From Candidatus Staskawiczbacteria bacterium RIFOXYB1_FULL_37_44 (GTDB taxonomy: Bacteria > Patescibacteriota > Minisyncoccia > Minisyncoccales > Staskawiczbacteraceae), in contig MHPJ01000001.1 in NCBI GenBank assembly GCA_001822065.1, positions 6,870 through 70,869 of the forward strand: a stretch of 64,000 nucleotides of DNA, given 5' to 3'. The position numbers and the translations under genes were made by a program. Of the stretch, positions 2,902 through 23,366 are shown piece by piece. Below the pieces are notes generated by a model. That model ran no database searches. It saw nothing but the letters and a program-made list of their open reading frames with translations, and had not been told where the DNA came from. Numbering within the stretch: the first letter of the stretch is position 1; the number at the start of each line of letters is the position of its first letter.

Positions 2902-2936
2902 GCCGTTGAGCCCGAAAGGTCTCGCGGCTTTTTTAT
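2902..2936 (+). terminator. Rho-independent terminator-like hairpin plus T-run
   Basis: gccg..gagccc-gaaa-ggtctc.cggc followed by ttttttatt, directly after the stop at 2873. Confidence 0.55.
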
Positions 2937-2949
2937 TAAATTTTTATAA

Positions 2950-2985
2950 CATCTTGTAAATAGTAAAGCTTTACTAAATACAAGA
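2950..2985. repeat. 36-bp internally palindromic repeat, copy 1 (catcttgtaaatagtaaagctttactaaatacaaga)
   Basis: Identical to 3581-3616. Core agtaaagctttact is a perfect 14-bp palindrome with outer arms tcttgta/tacaaga. Confidence 0.95.
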
Positions 2986-3035
2986 CGAGATGTAAAATAG
3001 AATAGAGAAAACGAATAAAATAATAAAAAGATAAA

Positions 3036-3563
3036 ATGAAAATATCAATTACCGATGAATTTCTTTGGGATGTTTATAAGCTTTTAGAAAAAGCAGGCGA
3101 TGTCGCAGATTCTGCATTTAAACCCATAACGATGAGAAATTATCTGCCGGGAGAAGAATGTCCAATTTTTAAGAAATATAAGCACGATAAAAATAAAAGA
3201 AAATTTAGTAATTTAATGTATTATCTTAAAAAGAATGGTTATATCAAAGCAAAAAAAATAGAAAATGGGCAAGGAATAATGATTACAAAGGAGGGAATAG
3301 ATAAGGCGCTAAAAGCAAGTTTTGTTTTAGACGGACATAAAAAGAGAAAAGACGGAAAATGGGTTATGTTAATTTTTGATATACCTCAAAAGCAAAAAAC
3401 AGCTAGAATGTTGTTGCGAAGTATTTTAAGTAATTTAGGGTATAAATTGTTTCAGCAAAGCGTTTGGATTTCACCTTATGATATTTCAGAAAAAACAGAG
3501 AAATTGTTGCAACTGCATTCCCTGGAAAATTATATTAAAATATTTTTAATTGAAAAGCTATAA
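3036..3563 (+). CDS. PaaX-like regulator (N-terminal wHTH plus C-terminal PaaX_C/Cas2-like ferredoxin-fold domain)
   Basis: 'DGKWVMLIFDIPQKQKTARMLLRSILSNLGYKLFQQSVWISPYD' matches the W-x-[IV]-x-F-D-[IV]-P...R...L...GF..LQ.SVW..P signature of PaaX C-domains and Cas2-fold proteins. Confidence 0.6.
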   Translation: MKISITDEFLWDVYKLLEKAGDVADSAFKPITMRNYLPGEECPIFKKYKHDKNKRKFSNLMYYLKKNGYIKAKKIENGQGIMITKEGIDKALKASFVLDGHKKRKDGKWVMLIFDIPQKQKTARMLLRSILSNLGYKLFQQSVWISPYDISEKTEKLLQLHSLENYIKIFLIEKL

Positions 3564-3580
3564 TATTTTACGCTTATTGG

Positions 3581-3616
3581 CATCTTGTAAATAGTAAAGC
3601 TTTACTAAATACAAGA
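3581..3616. repeat. 36-bp internally palindromic repeat, copy 2
   Basis: 36/36 identical to 2950-2985. Begins 17 nt after the stop of the PaaX-like gene. Confidence 0.95.
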
Positions 3617-3658
3617 TAATACAAATCTGAAGATTTCTAAAGATTCAGTTCGAAAAAA

Positions 3659-3686
3659 TTGACATTTTGTGTTGAGGGTATAATAT
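3659..3686 (+). promoter_or_regulatory. Sigma-70-like promoter candidate for the HD-domain gene
   Basis: TTGACA (3659-3664), 16-nt spacer, TAATAT (3681-3686). An overlapping TATAAT has a spacer that is too short. Confidence 0.35.
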
Positions 3687-11124: not shown

Positions 11125-11938
11125 CATTAAAAAAATTTTAAAACCAGCCAGGCGAATAAAACTGGAAAAAGAAATTAAAGCCTCTATAAAAGGCGGGGTT
11201 TTGATGTTTATGAAAAATAATCCCTTGACAGAAACTCCAAAATTTGGCTTTTGGAAAATAATATTTTCTCAAAAATTAAAACCCGCTTACATTTCAATAT
11301 TGTCTTTAGTGGCAGTTTTGCTGGTGTCTGGAGCAGTGAGCGCGCAGGCCAGTTTGGCGCTTCCCGGAGATATTCTTTATCCCGTGAAAGTTGGAGTTAA
11401 TGAAAAGGTCCTGCAAGTTCTGGCTTTTTCCGACCAGGCGAAAATAAAATTAAGCGTCCGTTTGGCTGAAACGCGTTTAAAAGAAGCTGAAAAATTGGTG
11501 GTGGAAAACAGGATAACCAAAGACAACCAAATGCAAATTAATAATAATTTTAGCGCAAAAGCAGATGAGGTTTCAAAATCTATAAACAAACTAAATAGAG
11601 AAAAAATGGAGAATAGCGCGCAGAAAATCGCTGATGATTTTAATAAAACTTTAGAAATCCATACCAAAGTTTTAGAAAAAATCCAGCAGGAGAAAGATAA
11701 ATCTGACAAAGCGCGCGATAAAAATCGGGAAAATGTAGACTCTATAATAAACAGAGTAAACAGCGTCAGGGATAAAATTAACGCTGATATAAAAGAAAAT
11801 AAAATCAAAAATGAAAAGAAAGCAGAAGAAATAAGGCAAAAAGCAAATGAGCAAATTCAAAAAATAAAAGATAAGATAGAAAGCAACAAAGCAGAAAATA
11901 ATACTGAAAATAATATAGAAAATAATACTGAAAAATGA
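11114..11938 (+). CDS. Single-pass membrane protein, DUF5667-like (putative anti-sigma partner)
   Basis: Overlaps the sigma gene by 11 nt. TM helix 'AYISILSLVAVLLVSGAVSAQA'. 'LPGDILYPVKVGVNE...RLAETRLKEAEKL' followed by a charged coiled-coil tail. Confidence 0.6.
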   Translation: MNNNIKKILKPARRIKLEKEIKASIKGGVLMFMKNNPLTETPKFGFWKIIFSQKLKPAYISILSLVAVLLVSGAVSAQASLALPGDILYPVKVGVNEKVLQVLAFSDQAKIKLSVRLAETRLKEAEKLVVENRITKDNQMQINNNFSAKADEVSKSINKLNREKMENSAQKIADDFNKTLEIHTKVLEKIQQEKDKSDKARDKNRENVDSIINRVNSVRDKINADIKENKIKNEKKAEEIRQKANEQIQKIKDKIESNKAENNTENNIENNTEK

Positions 11939-11979
11939 GCTATACGTAATTTTCACGATCGTAAATTTCTTGTATAGCT
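11938..11979. repeat. CGATCG-centred palindromic repeat, copy B1
   Basis: agctatac-gtaattttcacgatcgtaaatttctt-gtatagct, with perfectly complementary 8-bp outer arms. Aligns with 12176-12216 and 12822-12862. Confidence 0.85.
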
Positions 11980-12005
11980 GGGAAAACTTGAAAAATAATA
12001 AAAAA

Positions 12006-12040
12006 GGCGTCCCGATCCCATAAGAGGGAGGGACGCTTTT
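12006..12040 (+). terminator. Rho-independent terminator
   Basis: ggcgtccc...gggacgc stem followed by tttt. Sits downstream of the gene at 11114-11938. Confidence 0.7.
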
Positions 12041-12175
12041 GGTCTTTCGCGCAAGTCGGCGTACATTGCCTAAACCTCAAAAATTGCGAGGAATTCTTCG
12101 ACTGTTTTGCAAAAATTATCAAACAATTTCTTGTGATGTCACGACTGTGAGAACTAAGATTTAACTGTATTTTAG

Positions 12176-12216
12176 TTATACAATAAATTCACGATCGTAA
12201 ATTTTACGTATGGCTG
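12176..12216. repeat. CGATCG-centred palindromic repeat, copy B2
   Basis: ttatacaataaattcacgatcgtaaattttacgtatggctg, immediately upstream of a promoter-like motif and the PaaX-like gene. Confidence 0.8.
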
Positions 12217-12217
12217 A

Positions 12218-12232
12218 TATTTGTGATAAAAT
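12218..12232 (+). promoter_or_regulatory. Extended -10-like motif tatttgtgataaaat
   Basis: This 15-mer is identical to 12922-12936 and contains TG-n-TAAAAT. It lies 2 nt after repeat B2. Confidence 0.45.
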
Positions 12233-12252
12233 ATTATAATAACTATTTTAAG

Positions 12253-12792
12253 ATGGCTGCTTTAAAAGAAAAAATATTATTATTGCTTTTTGGCGGGCTT
12301 GCTTTTGGTTGCGCTTATACTCCGCAAAAACAGTGGAAAGTTATTAAAACTATATCTGTTGAATGGAAAAAGATAGATAAAAAAGAATTATTTGCAGAAA
12401 TTCACAGATTGTATAGGTCAAAATTGGTGAAAAGAATAACCAATTCAGACGGAACACTCACGTTTATTTTAACTGAAAAAGGTAAATTAAGGGCCCTTAC
12501 TTATAGTTTTGAACATATGAAAATAGAAAAGAAAGACTGGGACGGCAAATGGCGATTTATTGTTTTTGATGTTCCCGAAAAGTTTAGAACCGGACGAGAT
12601 GCGCTAAGATGGAAAATTAAAAAACTTGGATTCTATGAATTACAAAAAAGCGTTTTTATTTTTCCTTATAAATGCGAAGACGAGATAAATTTTATTATAG
12701 AATTTTTTGGAATAAGAAAATATGTCAGGTATGGAATAATAGATTTTATTGATAATAAGGCGCACTTAAAACAAATTTTTGGGCTAAAATGA
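12253..12792 (+). CDS. PaaX-like regulator (wHTH plus PaaX_C/Cas2-like fold), paralogue of 3036-3563
   Basis: 'DGKWRFIVFDVPEKFRTGRDALRWKIKKLGFYELQKSVFIFPY'. The ATG at 12253 is preferred over the tracked GTG at 12223, which lies inside the promoter-like motif. Confidence 0.6.
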   Translation: MAALKEKILLLLFGGLAFGCAYTPQKQWKVIKTISVEWKKIDKKELFAEIHRLYRSKLVKRITNSDGTLTFILTEKGKLRALTYSFEHMKIEKKDWDGKWRFIVFDVPEKFRTGRDALRWKIKKLGFYELQKSVFIFPYKCEDEINFIIEFFGIRKYVRYGIIDFIDNKAHLKQIFGLK

Positions 12793-12821
12793 GAAAAATT
12801 ATAAAATAATCAGAAAAAACC

Positions 12822-12862
12822 AGCTATACGATAAATTCACGATCGTGAAAATTACGTATGGC
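12822..12862. repeat. CGATCG-centred palindromic repeat, copy B3
   Basis: agctatacgataaattcacgatcgtgaaaattacgtatggc. The core ttcacgatcgtgaa is a perfect 14-bp palindrome. Confidence 0.85.
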
Positions 12863-12942: not shown

Positions 12943-13512
12943 ATGAATTTCTGGGAAAAGAATAAATTATTTTTTGCAATAATTTTAGGAGCTGTAATAA
13001 TTGGAATTTTTGTTTATTTTAGCTTGGAAAATCAAAAAAAGATTGCTTCGTCGCTCGAAGCTCCTCGCAATGACGTTGTGGGAAAATCCGTGGAGGACGG
13101 GCCTCCCCTGACTGGAACTCCAATAGCTTCCGCGTGCGGGGTACATGAAAATACGTTTGTTACAAAAGTAATTGACGGCGATACGGTTGTGGTTGAGGGA
13201 GGATATCATGTGCGGCTTTTGGGAATGGACGCAGACGAAAAAAATTATCCTTGCTATGAGCCGGCTAAAACCCGACTTGAAAATTTAGTTTTGGGAAAAA
13301 TGGTAAAATTGGAAAAAGACAGAACAGATTTGGATCAGTATGGCAGGTGTTTGCGGTATATTTTTATCGGAAATACAAATATTGGCGCGCAGCTGGTAAA
13401 AGAAGGCATGGCAATTGCCAGATTTTATAATCCCGACATAAAATATAAAACAGAAATTGCCGAGGCCGAAAAGCGGGCGCAACAAAACAAAGCCGGCTGT
13501 AAATGGAAATGA
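12943..13512 (+). CDS. Membrane-anchored staphylococcal-nuclease-like (SNase/thermonuclease) protein
   Basis: N-terminal TM helix. 'VIDGDTVVVEGGYHVRLLGMDADE', 'GRCLRYIF' and 'NIGAQLVKEGMA' are SNase-fold motifs. Confidence 0.8.
   Translation: MNFWEKNKLFFAIILGAVIIGIFVYFSLENQKKIASSLEAPRNDVVGKSVEDGPPLTGTPIASACGVHENTFVTKVIDGDTVVVEGGYHVRLLGMDADEKNYPCYEPAKTRLENLVLGKMVKLEKDRTDLDQYGRCLRYIFIGNTNIGAQLVKEGMAIARFYNPDIKYKTEIAEAEKRAQQNKAGCKWK
13041..13075. repeat. GC-rich 35-bp element (gattgcttcgtcgctcgaagctcctcgcaatgacg) in frame in the nuclease gene
   Basis: 33/35 identical to 13757-13791. It is the reverse complement of the left arm of 16406-16438. Confidence 0.85.
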
Positions 13513-14957
13513 AATTTTTTGAAAAAAATCAAATTTTCGCATTTTTGGCGAGTCTTTCTTGTACTCTTGTTTTAGGCTTTTTTGTTTGGATCGCGTTTTT
13601 GAGTTCAAATAATTATTCTTTTATTTTTAACAAGGTTTTGGGGCAAGCCAATAAAATCGGTTATAAATTTTTTTCGGCAACAGTGAGCTTGCCTAATACC
13701 CAAGTTGAGGAAATAGTTCAGGAAACTGATTCTGCGCAAGATATAGTGCCAAATGAGATTGCTTCCTCGCCCGAAGCTCCTCGCAATGACGAAACAACAG
13801 AACAAGAAAGGCAAAATTTGCTTGATGACATTGCGGAAAAATTAGATGTAATTCAGCAAAAAGTTGATGAACTTGTTGCGCAATCAAAAACCGCAGACGA
13901 ACTGAAAATGGAAGAAGAAATTAAAAAAGACGAGGAAAAAAATACGGTTGTTTGCGCAGGGCAAATAAATATAAATACAGCTTCCGCAGAAGAATTGGAT
14001 AAAATGGCTCAAGTTGGTCCGGTAACGGCTCAAAAAATAATACAAGCCCGTCCATTTTATTCGCTTAATGATTTGTTAAGAGTGGGCGGGATAGGAGAAA
14101 TAACTTTACGAAAAATAATAGAGCAGGGGTGCGCTTATGTTGAATTTGTGACGCCGGCCGTTGCGCCGGCGCAGGTTGTTTATCCAAAAATTTTAATTTC
14201 AGAAGCGCAAATTTTGCCGATTAATCAAAGATTTGTCGAGCTTTACAACTCAAATTCAACAGATATTGATTTGACCAATTGGTATTTGCAAAGGAAAACA
14301 GCAACGGGCGAGGATTATTCAAGTTTTGTTACAAAAAATGATTTTGCGGGAAAAATAATTTTGGCAAATTCATATTTTTTAATTTCCCGGCAAATTGAAA
14401 ATGCCGATATTTTGCAAGAAATAATTTTAAGCGATAACAATTCTTTGGTTCTAAAAAATCCGGCGGGAGATACTTCTGATATTATGGATACCGCCAGCCC
14501 AAGCTCTGGCCAAAGTCTTTGCCTGCTGGACGCATGGGAAGTTTGTTCGCCAACTCCCAAAGCTTCCAATACAGTTTTTACTGAGCCGACTCCCCCGTCC
14601 TCAGATTCAACTTCTCCTGATCCCGATGTAATTTTACCAAGCATTGTAATATATAAAGTAATCGATATGGGCGGAGAATTTAGTATTGATTTGGCATTTT
14701 CAGAAAAAGTAAAGTACGAAATAATTATTGAATTTGGCGAAACTGAAATCAAAAAATGGTCTGGCGAAGCAAAAAATCCTCAACCAAAAATTTGGGATGG
14801 AAAAGATTCTTCGGGCACAATTGTTCCAGATGGCGTTTACACAATTAAAATTGAGATTACAGATTATACTCCAGAAAAAAATTTTGTTACTGACACAAGC
14901 AAAACAATTATAATTGATAATTCTCCAAACCTTGACTCGGGAGATTATAATCAGTAA
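13503..14957 (+). CDS. ComEA-like HhH DNA-binding protein with a lamin-tail domain and a FlgD-Ig-like C-terminus
   Basis: TM helix. 'ININTASAEELDKMAQVGPVTAQKIIQARPFYSLNDLLRVGGIGEITLRKI' (ComEA HhH). 'ISEAQILPINQRFVELYNSNSTDIDLTNWYLQRK' (LTD). 'IWDGKDSSGTIVPDGVYTIKIEITD' (FlgD-Ig-like). Confidence 0.75.
   Translation: MEMKFFEKNQIFAFLASLSCTLVLGFFVWIAFLSSNNYSFIFNKVLGQANKIGYKFFSATVSLPNTQVEEIVQETDSAQDIVPNEIASSPEAPRNDETTEQERQNLLDDIAEKLDVIQQKVDELVAQSKTADELKMEEEIKKDEEKNTVVCAGQININTASAEELDKMAQVGPVTAQKIIQARPFYSLNDLLRVGGIGEITLRKIIEQGCAYVEFVTPAVAPAQVVYPKILISEAQILPINQRFVELYNSNSTDIDLTNWYLQRKTATGEDYSSFVTKNDFAGKIILANSYFLISRQIENADILQEIILSDNNSLVLKNPAGDTSDIMDTASPSSGQSLCLLDAWEVCSPTPKASNTVFTEPTPPSSDSTSPDPDVILPSIVIYKVIDMGGEFSIDLAFSEKVKYEIIIEFGETEIKKWSGEAKNPQPKIWDGKDSSGTIVPDGVYTIKIEITDYTPEKNFVTDTSKTIIIDNSPNLDSGDYNQ
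13757..13791. repeat. GC-rich 35-bp element, second copy, in frame in the ComEA-like gene
   Basis: gattgcttcctcgcccgaagctcctcgcaatgacg. Encodes 'IASSPEAPRNDE', compared with 'IASSLEAPRNDV' in the neighbouring gene. Confidence 0.85.
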
Positions 14958-20269: not shown

Positions 20270-20273
20270 TTGC

Positions 20274-20296
20274 TTGTTGAAGTCAGACTTCAACAA
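20274..20296. repeat. REP-like palindrome, left copy
   Basis: ttgttgaagtc-a-gacttcaacaa (11-bp arms). Confidence 0.9.
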
Positions 20297-20324
20297 ACTT
20301 TAAAAAGATGCTATTATAAAGATA

Positions 20325-21026
20325 ATGCGCAAAGAACCATATACAGTCGGCGATTTTATTCATGTGTATAATCGCGGAAATCGGAAACAACCAATAGTTC
20401 TTGATACAAAAGATCAGTGGCGCTTTCTTTTGATGCTCCGTTATTTTAACGATGAGCATTCTTCTTCAAATCCTCTGCGTTACCTGTTGAAGTCTGACTT
20501 CAACAGGGCTTTCGAGTGGCCGCCCGATTGGCCGGCGCACAAACCATTGGTCAATATTGTTTGTTTTACGCTTATGCCAAATCATTACCATTTAATTTTA
20601 GAAGAAATTTCAGAGGGGGGCATAACAAAATTTATGAGAAAATTTGGAACAGGAATGACAAATTATTTTAATACAAAACATAAAGAATCGGGCAGATTAT
20701 TTCAAGGGGCGTTTAAAGCAAAAAGAATTGATGCGGAGAATTATCTTTCTTATCTTACAGTATACATTCAAGTTAAAAATGTTTTTGAATTATATGCAGG
20801 CGGGATTAAAAAAGCAGTAAATAATTTTGACGATGCTTTTCGGTGGGCAGTTGAATATCCATATTCCAGTCTTGCCGATTATGCCGATAATCGAAATTCT
20901 CCAATTGTTGAAAAAAGTGTTGCAGGCGGCATGTTTTCTTCTGTTGGAGAGTATCGAAATTTTTCTAAACAGTGTATGCTGAATATGAATTTGCAGGATA
21001 AACTTGGCGATCTCGCATTTGAATAA
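20325..21026 (+). CDS. REP-associated tyrosine transposase (RAYT) / IS200-like Y1 HUH transposase
   Basis: 'HVYNRGNRKQPI', HUH motif 'MPNHYHLILEE', catalytic-Tyr region 'YLTVYIQVKN', 'EYPYSSLADY'. Confidence 0.8.
   Translation: MRKEPYTVGDFIHVYNRGNRKQPIVLDTKDQWRFLLMLRYFNDEHSSSNPLRYLLKSDFNRAFEWPPDWPAHKPLVNIVCFTLMPNHYHLILEEISEGGITKFMRKFGTGMTNYFNTKHKESGRLFQGAFKAKRIDAENYLSYLTVYIQVKNVFELYAGGIKKAVNNFDDAFRWAVEYPYSSLADYADNRNSPIVEKSVAGGMFSSVGEYRNFSKQCMLNMNLQDKLGDLAFE
20483..20507. repeat. REP-like palindrome, internal copy in opposite orientation
   Basis: cctgttgaagtc-t-gacttcaacagg (12-bp arms). Encodes 'LLKSDFNR' within the RAYT ORF. Confidence 0.9.
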
Positions 21027-21055
21027 GCTTGTTGAAGTCAGACTTCAACAAGCTT
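21025..21055. repeat. REP-like palindrome, right copy (15-bp arms)
   Basis: aagcttgttgaagtc-a-gacttcaacaagctt. Sits between the convergent stops of the RAYT gene and the O-antigen-ligase-like gene. Confidence 0.9.
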
Positions 21056-23366
21056 AAAAACTTTTAATAAATTGTTCAATCTGGGGTTTTAGTTCGGGAT
21101 TTGTTTTAATTATTTCTTGAGCTAATTGTTTTGCCATTACATAGTTCCCCAATTCTTTGTGGCAAAGCATAATAGATGTTTTGTATTGCACTTCTCCCGG
21201 ATTTATTTCAGATAATTTTTGATAAAGAGGCAGCATTTCTTTGTAATTTTCAGTTTCCAAGTATGCTGCTACAAGCTGTCTTAACGCAATTTCACTATCT
21301 TCCACGGAATATCCATTCTCTTTTGCCTTTTCTGCAAATTCTTTTCCAGCTTTAATGTCTCCTAAATAAATATTAATTAATCCGGAAATCCAAAGACATT
21401 CACGGCTTTGGGGGAAGGTTTTTAGGCAATAGACCGATTCTTCTTTTGCTCTTTTCAAATCTTCTAAGGATACAGTAGCCATAAAAGAACTAAAAAGAAT
21501 TGTGGGGTTTCTTGGGCTTAATTTCAGGGCTTTATTGAAAGCGTCATTGGATTTGTTTATAAGCTCCGGATCGTTTTTTTCTTTTGCAATTGTTGCCAAA
21601 GATTCTCCCAAACGGAGCCAATTTTTGTAATCATATGGTTGGAGCTCAGTATTTTTTTGGGAAATTTCTGACACTTTTTTTGAAAGCTGGGCATTTTCAT
21701 CTGGATGTTTAATTATTCTGTTTATCAACATATTTAGGTATACAGAATTTGTGTAAGGAAGAAAAAAGGTATTTATTTTTGACTGTTTGTCTAAAATTTT
21801 GGAAGCGCCCTGCCAGTCGTTATATTCGTTTGCCAGCGTTTGGGCAATAATAATTTGTTTATTCATCTGCAAAGGAAAAAAGTTATATTGCCAAAGGAAT
21901 ATTATTAAAACCAGAAATAAAACGCAAAGAGCCGGAATTTTGATAAATTTTAATCTATTTGTTATTACTTCGCTCCTCCCGCCTTCGCCAAGGCTTCGGC
22001 GGGCATGCGCAATAACGTCGACTTGATTTGCATTTGCAGAGTAAATTAAATGTATAGAGTAGGCCGCCAAAAAGAAAAAAATAAGCATAATTGCAAAGCC
22101 GTCAATGGATGCCAAAGACGCTATAGAAAAAGCCAAAAGCCCTGCTTGCAGTCCGTTGGCAGCCGGGTATTGATGTTTAATTTTTTGCAGACCCCAAAAA
22201 AGAGAAAATAAAAAAACAAGATAAAAAATTAAAGCAAAAATTCCGGAATCAACTAAAATTTGTATCAAGTAATTATGCGCCCTGTCAAAATCTTTTAGGT
22301 CTTTCATTATGGGCAAAGTAGGGTCATAATGTTTGTTGAAGGCGACATAAAAGTTTTCCGGGCCGTATCCAAAAAATGGCCTTTCCAAAAAGGCTGATAT
22401 TGATATTTTCCATGCAGATGTTCTTGCCGGATCAGCTGAAAAACCACGCGTTAAGGATGTTATTCTTATTGTCGGTTCTTTTAATAAATTAGGCCATTTT
22501 CCATAAATTTGCGGGTGGCTGCTTAAAAAAAAGATAAAAATGAGAAGTACAATAGGTAAAATTATTGCGCCCGTTTTTATTTTTTTCATCTTTTTAGGAT
22601 TAAAAATTAAAAACCAAAAAATTCCAATCGAAAGTCCTAAAAAAGCGGCTCTGCCTTGCGCTATAAAAATAATTGAAAAGGAATAGAAAATAACCAAAAA
22701 TAAATAAAAATATTTTTTTATATTGCGTTTTTCTAAGATAAAGAAAGAAAACGCCACAAAGAACATGGGCAGAAGATAAAGAGAAAGTATTAATGAATTT
22801 CCTAGGGTTGAGCTTGGTCTTGTGTTTGTGTGAGTAAAAATATTATCTAAAACCCCGAATAGTTGGAAAATTGCCACCAATCCCACCAAAAATCCGATAA
22901 CCAGAGAAAAGTCAAGAAGTTTTTTCCAGTGTTCTTTTTTGACAATTGCCAAAGTTAAAAATAAAAAAAGAACGAAAAAAGTAAAATTTATAAAGCCCGC
23001 GCCTCTTTCGGGAGTTCCCCATAAGCTACGAGATACGTCGAGTGAAAGCAGTGTAGAAACGAAAACAATAAAGAAATAAGCCAAAAGCGAAATTATTGGT
23101 ATAAAAACCGCAGAGCGCGGGTTTAACGCCTCTTTCCAGCCCGAGGCTGGTCCGCCTTGGTCGGATATTTTTTTTAAGCTTATTTTTTCTTTAAACAAGT
23201 AAATAAAACCTAAAATAGCCAGTATCGATCTGAACGCAATTGCTTGCGTATATGATGGGGGTGTAAACCATGGCGGGATATTTAACGCCGGCAAGGCCAA
23301 CATTATAAAAAATCCGATTATATATATCAAATAAGAGATTTTATTATTTTCGTTGATTTTAGACAT
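21054..23366 (-). CDS. O-antigen ligase/polymerase-like (Wzy_C-type) polytopic membrane protein fused to C-terminal TPR repeats
   Basis: More than 10 predicted TM helices in the N-terminal 450 aa. TPR-like C-terminal third ('AFNKALKLSPRNPT', 'YLGDIKAGKEFAEKAKE'). Two GC-rich in-frame inserts. Confidence 0.65.
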   Translation of the reverse strand: MSKINENNKISYLIYIIGFFIMLALPALNIPPWFTPPSYTQAIAFRSILAILGFIYLFKEKISLKKISDQGGPASGWKEALNPRSAVFIPIISLLAYFFIVFVSTLLSLDVSRSLWGTPERGAGFINFTFFVLFLFLTLAIVKKEHWKKLLDFSLVIGFLVGLVAIFQLFGVLDNIFTHTNTRPSSTLGNSLILSLYLLPMFFVAFSFFILEKRNIKKYFYLFLVIFYSFSIIFIAQGRAAFLGLSIGIFWFLIFNPKKMKKIKTGAIILPIVLLIFIFFLSSHPQIYGKWPNLLKEPTIRITSLTRGFSADPARTSAWKISISAFLERPFFGYGPENFYVAFNKHYDPTLPIMKDLKDFDRAHNYLIQILVDSGIFALIFYLVFLFSLFWGLQKIKHQYPAANGLQAGLLAFSIASLASIDGFAIMLIFFFLAAYSIHLIYSANANQVDVIAHARRSLGEGGRSEVITNRLKFIKIPALCVLFLVLIIFLWQYNFFPLQMNKQIIIAQTLANEYNDWQGASKILDKQSKINTFFLPYTNSVYLNMLINRIIKHPDENAQLSKKVSEISQKNTELQPYDYKNWLRLGESLATIAKEKNDPELINKSNDAFNKALKLSPRNPTILFSSFMATVSLEDLKRAKEESVYCLKTFPQSRECLWISGLINIYLGDIKAGKEFAEKAKENGYSVEDSEIALRQLVAAYLETENYKEMLPLYQKLSEINPGEVQYKTSIMLCHKELGNYVMAKQLAQEIIKTNPELKPQIEQFIKSF

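Follow-up and report, generated by a model that had tools for sequence, protein, structure and literature searches.

PaaX is the phenylacetyl-CoA-responsive repressor of paa operons. In the proteins from E. coli and Pseudomonas (structures 8a39 and 3l09), an N-terminal winged helix is followed by a Cas2-like central dimerisation domain, and the polypeptide, which is ~305 aa long, also has a C-terminal helical domain for the effector phenylacetyl-CoA. The E. coli PaaX operator is the 39-bp sequence TGATTC-N27-GAATCA, and the protein represses its own promoter (Px) by steric hindrance (PMC9493321). Here we describe a shorter relative, of 175 aa, that is encoded within a 64,000-nucleotide stretch of DNA (the window: assembly GCA_001822065.1, contig MHPJ01000001.1, positions 6,870 to 70,869 of the forward strand) from Candidatus Staskawiczbacteria bacterium RIFOXYB1_FULL_37_44, a groundwater member of the Patescibacteriota from the Rifle aquifer. 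Its gene is bracketed by two identical palindromes, and the same design, with different palindromes, recurs throughout a large family of related genes. The protein is probably a short PaaX-type dimer that acts at two private operators, of which the upstream one would mediate autorepression and the downstream one would serve one of several roles. The elements of the locus are given below.

2950-2985, no strand: putative operator U, the upstream palindrome copy (34-bp palindrome at 2952-2985, dyad between 2968 and 2969)
2970-2998, + strand: predicted sigma-70-type promoter of the regulator from a consensus scan (-35 TTTACT, 17-nt spacer, -10 TAAAAT)
3036-3563, + strand: regulator open reading frame (ORF) of 175 aa, the sole ORF between the two copies (Pfam PaaX_M, E=3.9e-19)
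3581-3616, no strand: putative operator D, the downstream palindrome copy, which starts 17 nt past the stop codon (dyad between 3599 and 3600)

The initial annotation had described identical 36-bp repeats that enclose only a PaaX-like ORF, and this is indeed what is found: the 36-mer CATCTTGTAAATAGTAAAGCTTTACTAAATACAAGA has two + strand copies, 631 bp apart, that are 36/36 identical. No third match is present in the 64-kb window at up to 3 mismatches (0 expected from 100 shuffles), and a relaxed arm-plus-core pattern likewise finds no site in the window beyond the two copies. Each copy reads TCTTGTA-AA-TAGTAAAGCTTTACTA-AA-TACAAGA, a 34-bp palindrome with 7-bp outer arms, two A/A mismatched pairs, and a perfect centre of 16 bp; the anatomy is thus as first described, except that the perfect centre is larger than the 14 bp given then. 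The contrast in base composition that had also been pointed out is real (GC content of 29% in the regulator ORF versus 48% and 46.5% in the flanking genes), but with a window mean of 35.7% the stronger outliers are the flanking genes, not the regulator. The same locus, with identical gene order, is present in GCA_001820435.1 and 22 other contigs, and the exact window protein occurs on 23 contigs in one orientation and one context in all.

The best reading of the ORF, judged from its domain matches and modelled fold, is that it encodes a truncated PaaX-type DNA-binding protein that contains a Cas2 fold. Residues 103-171 match Pfam PaaX_M (PF20803, 'PaaX central Cas2-like domain') with 69 bits against a cut-off of 24; matches to CRISPR_Cas2 (PF09827; 16.1 versus 23.8) and to TIGR01573 (cas2; 21.7 versus 24.5) lie below threshold, and TIGR02277 (PaaX) yields 25.8 bits against a cut-off of 264.55. 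PaaX_C has no match in the protein, which stops at residue 175, right past the Cas2-like domain, and no recombinase or transposase motif was found in it. In the AlphaFold2 (AF2) model the C-terminal domain, with a predicted local distance difference test score (pLDDT) of 85-90, consists of the strands (E) and helices (H) E109-114, H121-134, E137-140, E143-146, H151-160 and E167-172, a ferredoxin-like fold with a conserved Asp closing beta-1, as in Cas2. The N-terminal part is modelled as a helix-helix-beta-hairpin (H43-49, H51-66, E70-75, E78-83) with a pLDDT of only 53-70. In a Foldseek search E. coli PaaX (8a39, E=8e-5) ranks first among solved structures; behind it come numerous Cas2 chains, to which the probability is 1.0, and winged-helix proteins, among them those of the MarR/F-93 type. 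The family retains the Cas2 motif FD(I/V/M)P; the window FDIP aligns with FDMP of E. faecalis Cas2, and D115, which corresponds to the Cas2 active-site Asp, is invariant in 120 sequences. (Rv0674, a PaaX-like protein whose structure is solved, 3kfw, lacks an Asp at this position.)

Like the E. coli and Pseudomonas PaaX proteins, the window protein has a Cas2-like domain, preceded here by a putative winged helix, but it differs from them in its length, in lacking the C-terminal effector domain, in remaining far from the TIGR02277 cut-off, and in retaining the Cas2 Asp. Its surroundings differ as well: the neighbours in the window are genes for a glycoside hydrolase, a membrane protein, an HD hydrolase, a glycosyltransferase of family 2 (GT2), HtrA and ClpB, with no paa genes nearby. 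Like Cas2 and VapD relatives it matches the cas2 models below threshold, and some database entries for such proteins are named Cas2; unlike Cas2 it is fused to a putative winged helix, scores under the curated cut-offs, and has neither an array nor, among the neighbours examined, cas genes. No CRISPR array is present in the 64-kb window, as had been stated at the outset, and no cas genes were found among the neighbouring genes on the 8 source contigs or among the clustered neighbours of 80 loci; PADLOC returned sub-family Cas2 models only (E around 1e-5), with no defence-system context, and an Rfam scan of the window matched no family anywhere. The likeness to CRISPR suggested earlier is accordingly superficial for the palindromes, which are two single sites and not an array, but real for the C-terminal domain, whose relationship to Cas2 holds.

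The bracket is a trait of the whole family. A profile search of 1.84 billion representatives gave 2,865 clusters (counted at 50% identity) at E<=1e-10, almost all of them 170-235 aa long; family members are 45-77% identical and are found in Staskawiczbacteria and other Patescibacteria. Eighty loci were fetched from species-representative genomes, and about 77 of them were compared by matching the 350 nt upstream of the gene with the 250 nt downstream, using as controls sequences 900 nt further away. In most of the roughly 77 loci the best ungapped match between the two sides scores 20-39, whereas the controls score 8-11. The segments so matched are palindromes, nearly perfect and about 34-42 bp long; the upstream one typically ends 5-60 nt before the start codon, and the downstream one begins 0-30 nt past the stop. 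Under a strict test, which demands centre-aligned palindromes at least 60% identical at both gene ends, at least 54 related loci pass, their palindromes being 34-48 bp long. Strong palindromes (score >=13) in the 514 kb of fetched DNA number 85 adjoining family genes and 29 in the remaining ~475 kb, and most of those away from family genes are GC-rich, terminator-like hairpins.

The palindromes are also private, each paralogue in a genome having its own, orthogonal one. Among these matches the assembly CAYIDV01 has 7 paralogues, and MHOR01, JBBTVU01 and JBBTQB01 have 4 each; the seven CAYIDV01 paralogues carry seven different palindromes. The paralogues are only 45-75% identical and are thus not recent copies. 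In the relatives, family genes adjoin those for DprA, TopA, FemAB, FtsW, MurF, LigA and SecY. Several further observations were made on the fetched loci. In L069 a third copy of the locus palindrome lies at ~1880-1920, 1.1 kb upstream and ahead of the preceding gene, so that this neighbour is bracketed too, and family-like solo palindromes are found in L013 (4698), L049 (1024), L076 (3771) and L080 (3853). The contigs of L012, L053 and L086 begin about 15 nt inside the family gene, just past where the upstream palindrome is expected; long perfect palindromes probably break assemblies, and therefore family copies in metagenome-assembled genomes may be under-counted.

Despite their locus-specific letters, the sites have a shared layout: eight strictly symmetric base pairs at the centre, then a spacer that varies, then outer arms. 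Asymmetric pairs occur in 0-5% of sites within the central 8 bp and in 16-27% at positions 5-10 from the dyad, values that carry some ascertainment bias, the dyads having been located by palindrome score. The central hexamers are AAGCTT, CGGCCG, CGATCG, AACGTT, CAATTG and CAGCTG. Positions 11-17 from the dyad form a conserved outer arm, with A at +/-17 and T at +/-11 family-wide. Each half-site has two conserved blocks about one helical turn apart. Wide-spaced inverted repeats of similar span (34-38 bp here), with a -35 inside as judged by sequence, are a likeness to PaaX; unlike the PaaX operator, the sites described here have a conserved, base-specific central core that is apparently read by the Cas2-like domain.

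This reading of the core comes from the covariation between protein and site. Mutual information between alignment columns and half-site positions was computed over 51 loci. The strongest pairs form two groups. Residue 59, within H51-66, the predicted recognition helix of the N-terminal winged helix, pairs with positions 14-16, and residues 118, 120, 125 and 141 of the Cas2-like domain, which are located in the beta1-alpha1 loop, at the start of alpha1, and in the beta2-beta3 turn, pair with positions 1-6. The pairings are as follows (a raised dot marks the dyad).

Residue 141 Q: G·C dyad (31 of 34)
Residue 141 K or R: A·T dyad (12 of 13)
Residue 141 H: mostly C·G dyad
Residue 118 E: CG at positions 3-2
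Residue 118 Q: AA at positions 3-2
Residue 59 K: TAC arms
Residue 59 N: TCTT arms
Residue 59 Q: TAG arms

The window protein, with N59, Q118 and Q141, fits its TCTT arms and AAG·CTT core. When sites were shuffled within clades, at three thresholds, the observed values for residues 141, 118, 59 and 125 were reached in 0 of 5000 shuffles, and the (118,141) pair predicted the core correctly in 14 of 14 held-out loci. (A Mantel-type correlation of protein distance with site distance, taken over whole domains, came out weak, at r about 0.17-0.20, and gave no discrimination between the domains; only the analysis by residue was informative.) In Cas2 structures the Asp at the end of beta1 is located at the two-fold axis of the dimer, and by fold topology the beta1-alpha1 loop and the beta2-beta3 turn are on the same edge as this residue. 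This topology suggests a Cas2-like dimer positioned over the dyad and winged helices placed at the arms.

The window holds a second member of the family, and the locus at 11938-12862 that the initial annotation had singled out as a paralogue is a real one; on comparison it proves to have three copies of a different palindrome.

11938-11978, no strand: extra third copy of the paralogue palindrome, immediately past the preceding gene's stop codon (1 mismatch against the relaxed pattern)
12174-12214, no strand: upstream copy of the paralogue palindrome, core CGA·TCG
12253-12792, + strand: paralogue gene, predicted winged helix-turn-helix plus Cas2-like, 179 aa from ATG 12253 (PaaX_M 6e-22, 78 bits)
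12822-12862, no strand: downstream copy of the paralogue palindrome, from repeat and relaxed-pattern searches

No copy of this palindrome occurs in the 64-kb window beyond these three. The mechanically called ORF begins at GTG 12223, and the database homologues are 179 aa long; the motifs of the protein are FDVPEK and LQKSVF. It belongs to a second subfamily, of 928 clusters at 90% identity, that is 23% identical to the first, and the bracket design is found in 5 of 6 newly fetched loci of this subfamily. Here too the (118,141) rule holds: it is right in 7 of 7 members (E,K giving CGA·TCG), including the window paralogue, in which the equivalents of E118 and K141 match the CGA·TCG core as predicted. 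No convincing ORF is present in the 195 bp between the extra and upstream copies (11979-12173), which do contain a terminator-like hairpin, ggcgtccc...gggacgctttt.

The upstream copy of the window regulator overlaps its predicted promoter. The -35 TTTACT (2970-2975) lies inside the right half of the palindrome, and the predicted -10 TAAAAT is at 2993-2998. A -10-like TAAAAT or TATAAT, often preceded by TG, is found 5-9 nt past the palindrome in the closest relatives (L009, L010, L019, L025, L040 and L066), and a promoter placed in this way, which is a feature of the window's own clade (TCTTACA/TCTTGTA arms), is shifted relative to the family consensus. In that consensus, obtained by aligning upstream copies on their centres, TTnACA occupies -7 to -2 and TATAAT +16 to +21 from the dyad, and conservation of the final three -10 bases is confined to upstream copies. 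Most commonly the ATG lies 27 nt from the dyad, so that its A falls 7 nt past the -10; the arrangement in about 20 of 54 loci fits a leaderless transcript. In both arrangements a palindrome-bound protein would occlude the promoter, much as PaaX blocks Px.

The downstream copy matches the upstream one in palindromy (130 versus 137 asymmetric pairs) and shares its core and arm bases, and for this reason it is taken to be a true second binding site. As a family rule its dyad lies 14-45 nt past the stop codon, which the palindrome abuts, often with T-rich sequence after it; the distances between the two dyads range from 561 to 691 bp (median 605). The downstream copy in the window has neither a T-tract nor a -10 box at the position where one is found after the upstream copy. 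The suggestion that it controls the HD-phosphohydrolase gene that follows is not supported by comparison. In L009, whose protein is 75% identical, the HD gene is absent though both copies are kept; a downstream copy is present at 6 of 11 loci with a convergent next gene as well as at 46 of 66 with a co-oriented one; and in the window a separate promoter is predicted for the HD gene, its -35 (TTGACA, 3659-3664) lying 60 bp beyond the downstream dyad. A few loci have the start of the next gene 27-36 nt from the downstream dyad, which is the geometry of the regulator's own start, and there direct control of the next gene would be plausible. A double role as operator and 3' hairpin is also possible. 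Tandem repeats stand beside this copy in two relatives: in L009 four 17-bp units GAGATGGTTTGTTTAAT lie at ~3570-3640, right past the downstream palindrome, and a similar tandem GGATTTTTGATAA repeat is located downstream of the L019 gene.

Taken together, the observed architecture, its generality, the covariation of amino acids with bases, and the promoter motifs argue for the following process, in which we infer the actual binding, the repression, the dimer geometry, and the role of the downstream site. The protein, a predicted winged helix plus a Cas2 fold without the PaaX C-terminal effector domain, would bind double-stranded DNA as a two-fold dimer. The Cas2-like domains, on the dyad, would read the central 6-8 bp (AAAG·CTTT in the window), and the two winged helices would read the outer arms 11-17 bp from the dyad (TCTTGTA in the window). 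Since the upstream site overlaps the promoter, autorepression is implied, with binding at this site repressing the regulator's own transcription. The downstream site could allow cooperative looping, act as a roadblock or insulator between transcription units, or, in some loci, control the next gene. Of the operator reading offered previously, dimeric winged-helix operators with autoregulation are thus well supported by comparison (the recurrent bracket, the covariation, the promoter elements), whereas the part that concerned the HD gene is not.

A number of points weigh against this model. The N-terminal domain, which is to read the arms, is modelled at low confidence (pLDDT 40-70), and no Pfam helix-turn-helix family matches it at E<0.1. 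The phylogenetic control of the covariation is partial, one clade holding 23-33 of the 51 sequences. The invariant D115, absent in 3kfw, leaves catalysis conceivable. Each copy has kept its own palindromy, beyond what operator function alone requires. The downstream gene is not conserved (HD hydrolase here, a membrane protein and a glycosyltransferase in L009), and a regulator that binds only around its own gene is one without obvious output. No 10-11-bp periodicity, as would reflect helical phasing, is seen in the inter-dyad distances, which are uninformative on looping. Finally, the whole support for the operator model is comparative.

Where the two copies of a locus differ, the pattern in which both arms of one copy differ from those of the other (aabb) is found in 47 columns, compared with 18 for abab and 8 for abba. 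In L090, L092 and L094 of the second subfamily both copies are perfect palindromes, with arms of 20-24 nt, and 2-4 mirrored positions distinguish one copy from the other. One possible source of such mirrored changes is the template-switch correction of quasi-palindromes, an established mutational mechanism that needs no selection; functional hairpin or cruciform forms are another. One rival explanation takes the palindromes as RNA or single-stranded DNA hairpins, which would serve as terminators or insulators at both ends of the gene or as processing or binding sites in the transcript for the Cas2-like (RNase-like) domain. Each copy indeed folds stably (-11 to -18 kcal/mol, z -3.5 to -5.2), palindrome-preserving changes dominate, downstream copies sit against the stop and tend toward a T-rich stretch, and the Cas2 Asp is invariant; G-U mismatches are slightly above A-C ones (86 versus 61), an excess too weak for use as a strand-specific RNA hairpin signal. 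However, the would-be loop, the central 4 bp on each side of the dyad, comprises the most strictly self-complementary positions of the site, and this central symmetry favours the duplex reading because it is needed by a two-fold reader of duplex DNA but not by a hairpin loop. Moreover, some 20 of the 54 loci have their promoter within the upstream palindrome and their ATG where transcription is expected to begin, so that the upstream copy there is outside the gene's own mRNA; residue 59 of the predicted recognition helix co-varies with the outer arm; the geometry is that of the PaaX duplex operator; the window downstream copy lacks a T-tract; and the mirrored changes can also be explained by template-switch correction. 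Hairpins as the primary function are for these reasons unlikely.

The inserted cassette that the initial annotation offered as its other reading, or, more specifically, a mobile element whose protein is a Cas2-derived nuclease or recombinase working at the dyads (in excision, homing or inversion), fares worse and is quite improbable. It would account for a gene placed between its own binding sites, as transposase genes are, for the occurrence of several paralogues per genome in intergenic gaps between housekeeping genes, for an ORF that is AT-richer than its neighbours, and for the invariant Cas2 Asp; in addition, the AAA..AAA copies of the window are the expected product of a centre-to-centre exchange between copies such as those of L009, L011 and L038. 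But in L009 the module is at the same place and in the same orientation, between DUF6938/glycoside hydrolase and HtrA genes, and it is the two GC-rich flanking genes that are missing; the flanks are thus the variable, lineage-specific parts, and an AT-rich cassette inserted between them was rejected. The DprA-X-TopA synteny also recurs in several genomes, as do other housekeeping contexts. The module is syntenic and vertically inherited. The protein has no recombinase or transposase motif, its paralogues are too divergent to be recent copies, and neither a solo copy nor an empty site was found in the window or in a metagenome scan that gave the same locus only (L089), although the absence of empty sites is weak evidence, the scan having poor coverage and evidently missing JGI contigs known to carry the locus. 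An inverting switch was considered separately, as AAA..AAA pairs could arise by inversion between the AAA..TTT and TTT..AAA copies seen in L009, L011 and L038; it was ruled out because L009 and the window share one orientation, as do all 23 contigs with the window protein, and because there is no recombinase domain. Least probable of all, and barely to be entertained, is that the two palindromes are independent regulatory or terminator elements, unrelated to the enclosed protein, that have been made alike by gene conversion: 36/36 identity at a separation of 631 bp permits conversion, but the bracket recurs with locus-specific letters in at least 54 loci, the covariation is predictive in held-out loci, and in many loci the copies differ at positions outside the specificity determinants yet keep core and arms.

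The operator model also has to be set beside other systems with paired palindromes. LacI (O1/O2/O3), GalR (OE/OI) and DeoR likewise have multiple palindromic operators around a promoter, with looping possible; unlike theirs, the second site described here is past the 3' end of the regulator gene, ~600 bp off and fixed near the stop, and neither a tetramerisation domain nor helical phasing is evident. A second operator past the stop codon, together with many paralogues that have private sites, distinguishes the family from PaaX as well. RAYT and IS200-IS605 TnpA genes resemble the family in being small genes between palindrome copies; in contrast to them, the proteins here have no HUH/Tyr motif, the palindromes are not dispersed, their central bases are symmetric, and the module is syntenic. 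The window itself has a gene of that other kind: an IS200-like Y1 transposase or RAYT-like gene at 20325-21026 (Pfam Y1_Tnp 24.5 bits, NCBIfam REP_Tyr_transpos under its cut-off) stands between two copies of the hairpin GCTTGTTGAAGTCAGACTTCAACAAGC, located at 20272-20305 and 21027-21060, and a third copy lies inside the ORF (20482-20515).

A more far-reaching view goes beyond autorepression and is doubtful. According to it, the Cas2-fold domain would do more than dimerise: it would be a sequence-reading head on the dyad, possibly catalytic, with a simple, re-programmable code, and the family would constitute a major undescribed class of site-specific DNA-binding proteins, or nickases, in candidate-phyla-radiation bacteria and an evolutionary bridge between Cas2 and PaaX. 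The face contacting DNA would be that around D115, with E/Q/K118 and Q/K/H141. In the strongest version the protein would cleave or nick DNA at the dyad, leaving as its footprint the mirrored evolution of the palindromes.

Some observations on neighbouring DNA may be added. The membrane-protein gene at 2350-2873, the GC-rich (48%) neighbour upstream of the regulator, is split into overlapping ORFs (2350-2544 and 2517-2873), as it also is in the annotation of other assemblies of this genome. Since the syntenic relative L009 has no counterpart, it is likely a recently acquired gene or a pseudogene. L089, a 1688-bp metagenome contig of the same locus, is without about 107 bp (at L089 770-790, corresponding to window ~2931-3037) that take in the upstream palindrome together with the predicted promoter and the beginning of the start codon, which would be either a deletion variant in the population or an assembly artefact at the palindrome. 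Past the paralogue locus, a 41-nt repeat that is 90% identical occurs at 13035-13075 and 13751-13791, inside two adjacent genes (an SNase-like gene at 12943-13512 and a gene at 13503-14957), and encodes SS(L/P)EAPRND in both.

A search for literature on PaaX in connection with Cas2, the candidate phyla radiation or Patescibacteria found none. Relative to the tools and literature consulted, three things are new: the bracket is general across a very large candidate-phyla-radiation family, paralogues have orthogonal sites, and a predictive rule relating amino acids to bases gives the central base pairs to the Cas2-like domain. To our knowledge, gene regulation in the bacteria of the candidate phyla radiation, whose genomes are small, is almost wholly uncharted. 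The family is large, with several copies per genome near topA, ftsW, femAB, murF and ligA, and its self-bracketing members form a natural library of protein/operator pairs that lends itself to reading off a recognition rule. Should the Cas2-like domain indeed read the central bases, this would be a new use of the Cas2 fold in DNA recognition, and the relation between PaaX-type repressors and Cas2 would become clearer; the orthogonal pairs of proteins and sites could, in addition, be compact parts for synthetic biology.

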